Shown in pieces: positions 24,993-26,428 of a stretch of DNA of 39,725 nt. Location: the IMG/VR virus record IMGVR_UViG_638341086_000010; one strand, written 5' to 3'. The first letter of the stretch is position 1, and each line of letters opens with the position of its first letter. The notes beneath the pieces were generated by a model. It searched no databases. It worked only from the letters and a program-made list of their open reading frames with translations, and was not told where the DNA came from. Position numbers and translations under genes: made by a program. This stretch comes from a virus. Lineage: Duplodnaviria > Heunggongvirae > Uroviricota > Caudoviricetes.

Positions 24993-25055
24993 ATGAAAAA
25001 AATGTTGTTTTCTGCCGCTCTGGCAATGCTTATTACAGGATGTGCTCAACAGACG
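24993..25055 (+). pseudogene. bor: bor (lipoprotein Bor) remnant: first 21 codons only, truncated by the IS element
   Basis: ATG with AGGA RBS, translation MKKMLFSAALAMLITGCAQQT (signal peptide plus lipobox LITGC matching lambda Bor as recalled); the next codon is TGA, formed by the first bases of the IS left inverted repeat. Confidence 0.8.
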
Positions 25056-25109
25056 TGAACCGCCCCGGGAATCCTGGAGACTAAACTTCCTGAGAAAGAG
25101 GTAAACAGG

Positions 25110-25436
25110 ATGACTAAAAATACTCGTTTTTCCCCTGAAGTCCGTCAACGGGCAGTCCGTATGGTTCTGGAAAGTCAGGGCGAATATGACTCACAATGGG
25201 CGACAATTTGTTCCATTGCTCCAAAGATTGGCTGTACGCCGGAGACTCTGCGTGTCTGGGTTCGCCAGCATGAGCGGGATACCGGGGGCGGTGATGGAGG
25301 GCTCACCACCGCTGAACGTCAGCGTCTGAAAGAGCTGGAGCGTGAAAATCGTGAACTGCGCCGCAGTAACGATATCCTTCGCCAGGCTTCCGCTTATTTT
25401 GCGAAGGCGGAGTTCGACCGCCTCTGGAAAAAATGA
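25110..25436 (+). CDS. IS629-type transposase OrfA (HTH DNA-binding subunit), 108 aa
   Basis: Translation [35 protein letters not shown]... with leucine-zipper-like C-terminus; ends in an A6 run (25428-25433) where the -1 frameshift into orfB is expected. Confidence 0.9.
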
Positions 25437-26323
25437 TGCCACTGCTGGATAAGCTGCGTGAGCAGTACGGGGTCGGACCGCTATGCAGCGAACTGCATAT
25501 TGCCCCGTCAACGTATTACCACTGTCAGCAACAGCGACATCATCCGGATAAACGCAGTGCCCGTGCGCAGCGCGATGACTGGCTGAAGAAAGAGATACAG
25601 CGCGTATACGATGAAAATCACAAGGTATACGGTGTGCGTAAAGTCTGGCGTCAGTTGTTACGGGAAGGTATCAGAGTGGCCAGATGCACTGTGGCACGTC
25701 TCATGGCGGTTATGGGACTTGCCGGTGTTCTCCGGGGTAAAAAGGTCCGTACGACCATCAGCCGGAAAGCCGTTGCCGCAGGCGACCGCGTAAACCGTCA
25801 GTTCGTGGCAGAACGACCTGACCAGCTGTGGGTGGCTGATTTTACTTACGTCAGCACATGGCAGGGCTTCGTCTATGTGGCGTTCATCATTGATGTGTTT
25901 GCCGGATACATTGTGGGGTGGCGGGTCTCACCGTCCATGGAGACGACATTCGTGCTGGATGCACTGGAGCAGGCGTTATGGGCCCGTCGACCGTCCGGCA
26001 CGGTCCATCACAGTGATAAAGGTTCTCAGTATGTATCGCTGGCCTACACACAGCGGCTTAAGGAAGCCGGATTACTGGCATCAACAGGAAGTACAGGCGA
26101 CTCGTATGACAACGCGATGGCGGAGAGCATCAATGGTCTTTACAAAGCGGAGGTAATACACCGTAAGAGCTGGAAAAACCGTGCAGAAGTGGAACTGGCC
26201 ACACTCACGTGGGTGGACTGGTATAACAATCGACGATTGCTGGAAAGGCTGGGCCATACTCCTCCGGCAGAAGCAGAAAAAGCTTATTATGCTTCCATCG
26301 GAAACGATGATCTGGCAGCCTGA
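25433..26323 (+). CDS. IS629-type transposase OrfB (DDE catalytic domain), 296 aa; expressed as an OrfAB fusion by -1 frameshift
   Basis: Overlaps orfA in the -1 frame; carries an integrase-core region (…WVADFTYV… …HSDKGSQY…) typical of IS3-family transposases. Confidence 0.9.
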
Positions 26324-26428
26324 GTTCACAGATAAAACACTCTCCAGGAAACCCGGGGCGGTTCATAATTATGCCGTGTTGATTTCCCAAAATCAAAATC
26401 GATAGAATTGCTCCTTCTTAAAACACTT

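Follow-up and report, generated by a model that had tools for sequence, protein, structure and literature searches.

In the lambdoid prophage at the argU/intD locus of Escherichia coli E110019, an atypical EPEC strain, a full-length IS629-type insertion sequence occupies the place where related phages and prophages carry Q, the nin genes and the lysis cassette. We are confident that this allele was produced by an IS-bounded deletion, in situ, of a prophage of the PhiR34_1/DLP12 type, with the predicted consequence that the element can still be induced but can neither activate its late genes nor lyse its host. This confidence applies to the in situ deletion and to its predicted consequences; the two-copy step by which the deletion may have come about is a separate matter, and is graded on its own below. 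The DNA that we analysed (hereafter ‘the window’, a stretch of 39,725 nucleotides) corresponds with 100% identity to approximately positions 481391–521115 of the E110019 chromosome (NZ_CP035751.1). When a 3.8-kb query around the IS was compared with sequence records, this was the one record that agreed with it at 100% along the entire query. A literature search returned no paper on the E110019 argU prophage, nor any on ‘DLP12’ together with ‘IS629’.

Identity and layout of the argU prophage

By its sequence, the element is a PhiR34_1/DLP12-type lambdoid prophage integrated at argU: in the RefSeq annotation the tRNA-Arg gene (argU) adjoins it and intD stands at the right end of the window, and the same argU/intD locus is the site of the cryptic prophage DLP12 in K-12. 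The lambda leftward direction corresponds to the + strand of the window. RefSeq annotation, the cosN site and collinearity with phages together describe a lambda gene order (int–xis, recombination, immunity, O–P, cos, Nu1–J, and integration at argU), with Nu1 to tfa on the − strand (Table 1), replication and immunity genes at about 30.4–34.1 kb, and recombination genes and int at 34.6–39.7 kb. The full element, in which cos is kept, would measure ~40.6 kb (44,626 − 5,318 + 1,310). Neither tblastn nor annotation reveals a functional late switch (Q, pR'/qut) or a lysis cassette, and it is this absence that makes the E110019 argU prophage a defective member of the lambdoid group.

Table 1. Features of the E110019 argU prophage, with their positions in the window
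Feature	Position	Strand	Description
Virion and packaging module	1007–24049	−	Nu1, A, W, B, C/Nu3, D, E, FI, FII, Z, U, V, G, T, H, M, L, K, I, J, lom, stf, tfa
cosN	24227–24238	−	Exact lambda 12-nt cohesive end GGGCGGCGACCT; single exact match in the window
ylcI (DUF3950)	24438–24632	+	Pfam E 2e-20; RefSeq name ylcI; between cos and bor
bor/iss 5' remnant	24993–25055	+	Codons 1–21: signal peptide, lipobox Cys17 and four further residues
IS629/IS1203-type IS (IS3 family)	25056–26365	+	1310 bp, full length
IS termini	IRL 25056–25080; IRR 26341–26365		Terminal inverted repeats begin TGAACCGCCCCGGG; 23/25 positions match
orfA	25110–25436	+	Pfam HTH_Tnp_1, E 6e-13
ALIL frameshift pseudoknot	25391–25507		Rfam, 120 bits against a gathering score of 50
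Slippery site AAAAAAT	25428
orfB	25433–26323	+	Pfam rve (E 4e-27), HTH_21, rve_3
ybcM–ylcH spacer remnant	26366–26428		63 bp between the right end of the IS and the ybcM stop codon
ybcM, AraC-family regulator	26429–27226	−	Pfam HTH_18, E 1e-16; last early-side gene kept
Early-right and immunity region	27236–34078		ybcL, ybcK (serine recombinase), ylcJ, emrE, ren, P, O, cII-like YdaT-domain gene, cro, cI (assigned from RefSeq annotation and Pfam and PHROG matches)
Early-left region	34590–39725	+	kil, gam, bet, exo, methyltransferase, small ORFs, xis, intD
xis	38335–38706	+	123-codon ORF; PHROG 2907 excisionase, full length, E 6e-46
intD	38562–39725	+

The remainder of the prophage is well preserved. 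RefSeq annotates every one of the virion and packaging genes as an intact coding sequence, with zero pseudogene flags (Nu1, for example, matches Pfam Phage_Nu1 with an E-value of 4e-101), and this region is collinear with those of the isolated phages PhiR68_2, Turner, 2H10 and PhiR34_1, at 96.5–97.2% identity over 93–96% of 25 kb. At the sequence level, viable phages have matching virion, cos, replication, immunity and int/xis modules, and the IS-bounded deletion is the sole disabling difference that we found relative to a viable phage.

Two other features were considered as possible defects and rejected. One is a ‘partial HTH’ that RefSeq places upstream of int: the gene at this position encodes a full-length excisionase, and its DNA is identical to that of PhiR34_1 at 311 of 311 positions. 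The other is a 0.5-kb stretch between cI and kil that contains no N-like ORF; PhiR34_1 shares this gap (639/641 identity). Near the methyltransferase gene there is also a small substituted segment, a benign mosaic difference.

The IS629-type element and its junctions

The element has the size (~1310 bp) and the imperfect TG...CA terminal repeats of IS629/IS1203, and its organization is that of the IS3 family: orfA (HTH) and orfB (DDE/rve) are joined by a −1 programmed frameshift, and RefSeq/PGAP annotates an IS3-family transposase with programmed frameshift. When it is judged against copies in genomes, its gap-free identities are 99.92% to a copy in O145, 99.5% to that in CE10 and 97.3% to that in 23CRST050; a copy in O157:H7, annotated as IS1203, an isoform of IS629, is 96.0% identical. 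Since the published divergence among IS629 sub-types is itself 4–5% (PMC3271280), ‘IS629-type’ is a fair name for the element.

At its left end the IS interrupts bor. The ATG of this gene is at 24993 and its codon 21 is ACG (25053–25055); the first three bases of the IS, TGA, stop the frame at once after that codon. Up to ...CAGACG the remnant is identical to intact bor in three relatives, beyond which it diverges, and RefSeq describes bor as ‘incomplete; missing C-terminus’. The cosN site also lies to the left of the IS. On the right, the remnant of the ybcM–ylcH spacer is identical to PhiR34_1, to E. coli strain 190693 (L006) and to a further relative (L003) from TAATTATGCC on, the sequence upstream of this point being missing. 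The right deletion endpoint is directly beside the foot of a hairpin with a 10-bp stem, which is present in the relatives and lost here. Further to the right, the ybcM product (RefSeq WP_000881075.1) is the same protein in the relatives. Microhomology at the junctions amounts to T (1 nt) on the left and CA (2 nt) on the right, which is too short to tell mechanisms of deletion apart.

The bases that flank the IS read ACG-IS-TAA (GACG and TAAT if four are counted), and so 25056–26365 lacks the 3–4 bp target-site duplication that accompanies a simple insertion. A positive control is provided by a same-family IS in ylcG of 23CRST050: when checked against the uninterrupted sequence, this is a simple insertion with a clean 3-bp duplication (CCC/CCC). 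We ascribe the absence of a duplication in E110019 to the deletion, and the identity of the IS is not thereby challenged. IS629 in O157 is known to generate 3–4 bp duplications, but at 21 of 47 sites only, and 62% of its copies reside in prophages (PMC3271280).

These data agree closely with a preliminary description of this DNA. It had named an IS629-type element of the IS3 family, 1310 bp long, which the protein domains, the ALIL pseudoknot, the inverted repeats and identities of 96.0–99.92% all bear out; it had placed the left end of the IS in bor at codon 21, where the identity of bor to its relatives indeed ends (position 25055); and it had estimated the distances from the IS to ybcM and to cos as about 60 bp and about 800 bp, for which we measured 63 bp and 818 bp. 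It had also read ACG and TAA as something other than a target-site duplication, a reading that the CCC/CCC control reinforces.

The missing block

In IS-free relatives the two flanks of the IS are collinear and yet non-contiguous, which is the pattern expected of an IS-bounded deletion. In strain 190693 the flanks lie at 20204 and 26761, so that 6556 bp are missing from E110019 (identity is 99.16% across 10.5 kb of the right flank and 96.3% across 19.7 kb of the left); in PhiR34_1 they lie at 18334 and 13015, and 5318 bp are missing. The size of the block, 5.3–6.6 kb, varies with the moron cassette of the ancestor: this contains a porin gene in PhiR34_1 and in K-12, and genes for a lipocalin, YbgA and an AraC-like protein in strain 190693. 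In the relatives the deleted span reaches from bor codon 22 to the ybcM–ylcH spacer, and it encompasses ylcH, ybcN, ninE, ybcO, rusA, ylcG, Q, the moron cassette, the holin gene (essD/S in the relatives), the endolysin gene (rrrD/R), Rz/Rz1, and bor codons 22–97.

We found no trace of this block elsewhere in the prophage. When 13 block proteins (a query set that excluded the frameshifted rusA) were compared with the window by tblastn, only bor residues 1–23 were recovered, and all other matches had E-values of at least 0.14. In the RefSeq annotation there is no Q, holin, endolysin or spanin gene between the tail fibre genes and int, nor to the left of the prophage. The late promoter and the qut site are assigned to the lost interval by position only; a promoter/terminator consensus scan of the Q-to-S interval of strain 190693 yielded 12 sites versus 10 expected, and did not locate pR'.

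Given the mosaic nature of lambdoid genomes, and the different morons that these relatives carry between Q and S, one might suppose that an IS had simply inserted into a natural variant that never had Q, nin and lysis genes at this position, or had them elsewhere. We reject that reading, to which we attach almost no probability: a target-site duplication is lacking, the break in bor falls within the gene, at codon 21, and the flanks are identical to those of the relatives right up to the ends of the IS, even though in the relatives they stand 5.3–6.6 kb apart. Moreover, neither a homologue of Q or of the lysis genes nor an annotated candidate occurs within the prophage, and a phage devoid of Q and lysis genes could not propagate.

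The preliminary description had concluded that the IS sits in place of Q, the nin genes and the lysis genes, and through a deletion rather than a simple insertion. Both points stand, since the relatives carry that very block between the same flanks, 6556 bp apart in 190693 and 5318 bp apart in PhiR34_1. It had proposed an alignment to intact DLP12-like or lambda-like relatives, and this is what maps the block at 5.3–6.6 kb. As for the two findings that it regarded as speaking against its view, tblastn and RefSeq revealed no Q or lysis genes elsewhere within the prophage, and in place of a true direct repeat around contiguous ancestral sequence we see no repeat, and flanks that are non-contiguous in the relatives. 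Its picture of a prophage without late-activation and lysis genes despite an intact virion gene set is likewise upheld by tblastn and RefSeq, the functional defect itself being a prediction.

Origin of the deletion

As to mechanism, we lean modestly towards recombination between two IS629 copies in the same orientation, which we infer to have taken place in two steps. First, two equally oriented copies of IS629 would have entered this stretch of the prophage, the insertion into bor creating a duplication of ACG or GACG, and the insertion just past ybcM one of TAA or TAAT. In the second step the copies would have undergone homologous recombination, by which the interval and one copy were removed and a single hybrid IS was left behind. 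The flanks of this hybrid would derive from different insertions, and for that reason no target-site duplication would be expected. This route is favoured in part because the E110019 chromosome matches the IS629 end at ~20 places, and because this part of lambdoid prophages is often struck: in 117 genomes an IS629-type end lies within ~0.6 kb of bor, 23CRST050 has its simple insertion in ylcG, and in strain AHB12 two IS copies bracket the Q–porin–lysis block, but in inverted orientation. A double insertion near the block is plausible.

A one-step event has also to be considered, in which a single resident IS629 deleted the DNA adjacent to it by a transposase-driven, intramolecular reaction, possibly with the help of the IS-excision enhancer (IEE), while the IS itself was kept. 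The end product would be the same (an intact IS, no duplication, and non-contiguous flanks), and some microhomology, of 1–2 nt, does exist at the junctions. In IEE-positive strains, deletions that range from a few nucleotides to >40 kb next to IS629 have been reported (PMC9943667). However, the IEE-linked deletions described in the legend to Fig. 12 of that paper go together with excision of the IS, whereas the IS in E110019 is complete at both ends. [quoted passage not shown] The unchanged donor site, and the loss of the IS from IEE-linked deletions when here it is complete, are further reasons why we favour recombination between two copies; we hold the one-step deletion to be possible but doubtful.

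Each of the two real junctions gave a single contiguous match in one of 5,426 complete E. coli genomes, that of E110019 only, and the left junction was not found in metagenome contigs. We also looked for the hypothetical precursors of a two-copy recombination, namely bor interrupted by an IS between two copies of ACG, and an IS just after ybcM between two copies of TAA; the junction sequences CCCGGGGCGGTTCA(G)ACGTTTACTG and GGTGACATAA(T)TGAACCGCCCC, if either occurred with a duplication, would support this route. These searches employed 160-nt chimeric queries, and then a stricter test with two 60-nt junction sequences: the former returned only two-piece joins with an IS nearby, and the latter zero junction-spanning matches. 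An intermediate with an insertion at one junction and its duplication was thus found neither among the 5,426 complete E. coli genomes, for both precursor junctions, nor in metagenome contigs, for the bor-side junction. This outcome counts in favour of the one-step deletion, but on the whole the comparative data do not discriminate between the two routes. Nor would a hybrid signature be readable in the IS itself, because it differs by just 1 nt from the O145 copy.

Two sets of matches from these searches were set aside. Strain H27, the only other genome matched at full coverage, was considered as a second carrier of the allele and rejected, its match being a two-piece join with an IS ~260 bp away. 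Right-junction matches that extend 22 nt into iss (in CE10, IAI39 and AR_0013) belong to an unrelated, independent IS-bounded deletion.

The restriction of the junctions to one of the 5,426 complete genomes, and the presence of ~20 IS occurrences in the E110019 chromosome, would also be compatible with an assembly artefact, repeats being the usual cause of collapse: two IS629 copies around an intact Q–lysis block might have been merged by the assembler. We consider this very unlikely. The E110019 record is a closed, circular ‘complete genome’; if the assembler had collapsed a 1.3-kb repeat over 5–6 kb, one would expect an orphan contig, and repeats of this kind are spanned by long reads; a full-length IS connects the flanks, whose relative orientation is correct; and similar IS-bounded deletions arose independently in O145 strains and in CE10.

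A phage that lacked Q and lysis genes could not spread, and we therefore place the in situ deletion most probably in the lysogen and at a recent date; the allele looks young and private to the strain.

Comparison with known lambdoid elements

The closest viable counterpart is PhiR34_1 (PV340559.1; 44,626 bp), a temperate relative of lambda for which the deposited record gives E. coli K-12 MG1655 as the host. It is apparently a member of the ΦR series of lambda relatives, and in a recent preprint a panel including other ΦR phages was plaque-tested. PhiR34_1 shares with the E110019 prophage an intD-type integrase, xis, cI, cro, the cII-like gene, O, P and ren, the emrE–ybcK–ybcL–ybcM morons, and lambda-type virion genes; its identity is 99.3% to window positions 26366–39725 (over 96% of 13.4 kb) and 96.5% to positions 100–25055. 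Unlike E110019, it has no IS and retains 13016–18333 (5318 bp) with ybcN, ninE, ybcO, rusA, ylcG, Q, an OmpD/NmpC porin gene, S, R, Rz, and full-length bor.

DLP12 of K-12 resides at the same argU/intD site, and it too has decayed through insertion sequences (IS3 in renD, IS5 in nmpC). The gene order that it shares is emrE, ybcK, ybcL, ybcM, ylcH, ybcN, ninE, ybcO, rusA, ylcG, quuD, nmpC, essD, rrrD, rzpD, borD, ylcI, nohD. What is left of DLP12 complements the E110019 prophage: it keeps exactly the Q–lysis–bor block that E110019 lost, and has lost the virion genes and most of the early genes that E110019 keeps.

A third occupant of the DLP12 locus is the remnant in O145:H28 strains such as FWSEC0002 and RM13514, which contains a 99.92% identical IS in the same orientation, flanked by GCC and GGT, again without a duplication. 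Its left flank, through bor and cos, is 99.8–99.9% identical to that of E110019. The deletion, however, is an independent and larger one: the IS has a truncated essD on one side and a truncated integrase gene on the other, all early genes and Q are lost, and the endolysin gene, Rz and bor are kept. IS-bounded deletions have thus arisen independently, at this locus in O145:H28 and in a different lambdoid prophage of CE10, which shows that the process recurs.

A parallel for recombination between two copies comes from the Lenski long-term lines, where IS150-mediated rbs deletions were reportedly described by Cooper and colleagues in J Bacteriol in 2001. There, an IS3-family element is said to have made a new insertion nearby and to have recombined with the resident copy, leaving a single IS without a duplication, the intermediates having been inferred experimentally. 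That case concerns a chromosomal operon under experimental evolution, whereas the E110019 allele is known from its end product alone.

Among the lambdoid prophages of O157:H7 Sakai, the same IS inactivates phage functions, as in E110019; an example is nu1::IS in Sp4 (PMC2669165; PMC3271280). The pattern of damage differs: morphogenesis genes are often defective in the Sakai prophages and intact in E110019, and all 11 of the 11 Sakai lambdoid prophages encode Q and a full lysis set (PMC2669165), so that the loss of precisely these genes is a less common pattern.

Predicted consequences and biological meaning

In lambdoid phages, expression of the late genes depends on Q, whose site of action, qut, is part of the late promoter in the interval that separates Q from the holin gene. 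Extrapolating from lambda biology, the E110019 prophage should still derepress, excise and replicate after SOS induction, because cI, cro, O, P, xis and int are intact. Its late transcription should no longer be activatable, because Q and the Q-to-S interval are both deleted, and the prophage should be incapable of lysing the cell. With that interval gone, late transcription would probably not be restored in cis even if another prophage provided Q in trans. Another element could provide holin and endolysin in trans, but few particles, if any, would be available for release. The predicted result is a locked-in element with an unexpressed virion module. It is conceivable that a helper could package the element, or that recombination with a second lambdoid prophage could repair it; such helper packaging and recombinational repair of defective prophages have been described for O157 (PMC2669165).

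One could go further and view the loss as a selected ‘disarming’, in which only the late switch and lysis genes were removed while cos and the full virion module were kept, so as to create a reservoir that co-resident lambdoid phages would rescue via recombination, or that would be mobilised by cos packaging. We think this improbable. A size of ~40.6 kb lies within lambda packaging limits, and were ‘disarming’ to be true, the complementary block that is kept in K-12 DLP12 would hint at modular retention under selection. A mobilisable or rescuable pool of defective prophages has been proposed for O157 (PMC2669165).

We view the E110019 allele as ordinary prophage decay, a fresh instance of a well-known process that invokes no new mechanism. 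That insertion sequences contribute to the decay of lambdoid prophages is textbook knowledge, and since decay associated with IS629 in particular is well documented, the case is much less unusual than the preliminary description had implied. It matters mainly for the annotation and the prophage biology of E110019 as a reference atypical EPEC strain: with its ~40 kb and full set of virion genes the prophage looks near-complete, and software that detects prophages would probably class it as ‘intact’, although it is predicted to be defective. It also offers a clean, datable case in which IS629 removes the late switch, and for which a viable phage, 99% identical, is a possible template for repair.

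IS-bounded deletions at argU and elsewhere

We also found IS-bounded rearrangements of lambdoid prophages in other strains. In O145:NM strain FWSEC0002 (locus L002, 10275-12221) and other O145:H28 strains, the argU-locus IS is 99.92% identical to the E110019 copy and shares its orientation; it lies between a truncated essD and a truncated integrase, with flanks (GCC/GGT) that show no duplication. This IS-bounded deletion is independent of that in E110019 and larger, all early genes having been removed. The sole mismatch between the two IS copies (IS column 876) is a C in E110019 versus a T in the four other aligned copies, which changes a Ser of OrfB to Pro (WRVSSSMETT in the other copies). 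A two-copy state is represented by isolate AHB12 (L005, 6396-12401): in one of its lambdoid prophages, two IS3-family copies in opposite orientations enclose rzpD, rrrD, essD, ompC and quuD, the same block that E110019 deleted.

A different lambdoid prophage, in CE10 (L004, 4336-6202), carries an IS629-type element between an early-left gene (DUF2528) and a truncated iss; this join recurs in IAI39 and AR_0013, and is a further IS-bounded deletion with an endpoint in bor/iss. In 117 of 5,426 complete E. coli genomes, the end of an IS629-type element lies no more than about 0.6 kb from bor, which suggests that the surroundings of bor are a regional hot spot for these elements.

At the right deletion endpoint (window junction 26366), the relatives have a perfect hairpin with a 10-bp stem (GTCACCGGAG...CTCCGGTGAC) 3' of ybcM (26732-26760 in L006, the IS-free prophage of strain 190693), its foot 2 nt from that endpoint. 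The E110019 prophage has lost this hairpin with the deletion.

Features of the remaining prophage

Features of the E110019 prophage outside the deleted block
Feature	Position	Strand	Details
Pin-type DNA invertase	319-909	+	PHROG 125, E 5e-66
Tail-fibre and tail-fibre-assembly genes	1007-4614	-	
Rfam family IS009 match	1041-1239	-	216 bits, within tfa gene
OrfB substitution in IS	25931		
ybcL, ybcK, ylcJ, emrE block	27236-30419	-	between ren and nin region
Arginine-rich ORF	34470-34565	+	31 codons, TTG start, inside cI-kil interval
xis ORF	38335-38706	+	123 codons, PHROG 2907 excisionase, full-length, E 6e-46

The Pin-type invertase gene adjoins the tail-fibre genes, and this suggests an invertible host-range segment. 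Near the right end of the window, the last 145 nt of the xis ORF are shared with the 5' end of intD. RefSeq has nothing there beyond a 66-nt 'partial HTH' pseudogene, the record of the plaque-forming relative PhiR34_1 has no annotation at this position, and the K-12 counterpart is entered as the pseudogene xisD. Because its DNA is identical in viable PhiR34_1, the ORF probably encodes the genuine Xis in phages of the DLP12 type.

The interval between cI and kil (34079-34590, +) contains no N-like ORF, and the whole window contains no lambda-type boxA (CGCTCTTA); the cI-kil stretch matches that of PhiR34_1 at 639 of 641 positions. In phages of the DLP12/PhiR34_1 type, early antitermination may depend on an N protein of very small size or may dispense with N, for example through a cis RNA like that of HK022.

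The cargo block encodes a PEBP/Raf-kinase-inhibitor-like protein (ybcL), a large serine recombinase (ybcK) and an SMR efflux pump (emrE). Viable PhiR34_1 carries this block unchanged; therefore, the 'chromosomal' multidrug transporter gene emrE of K-12 is phage cargo.
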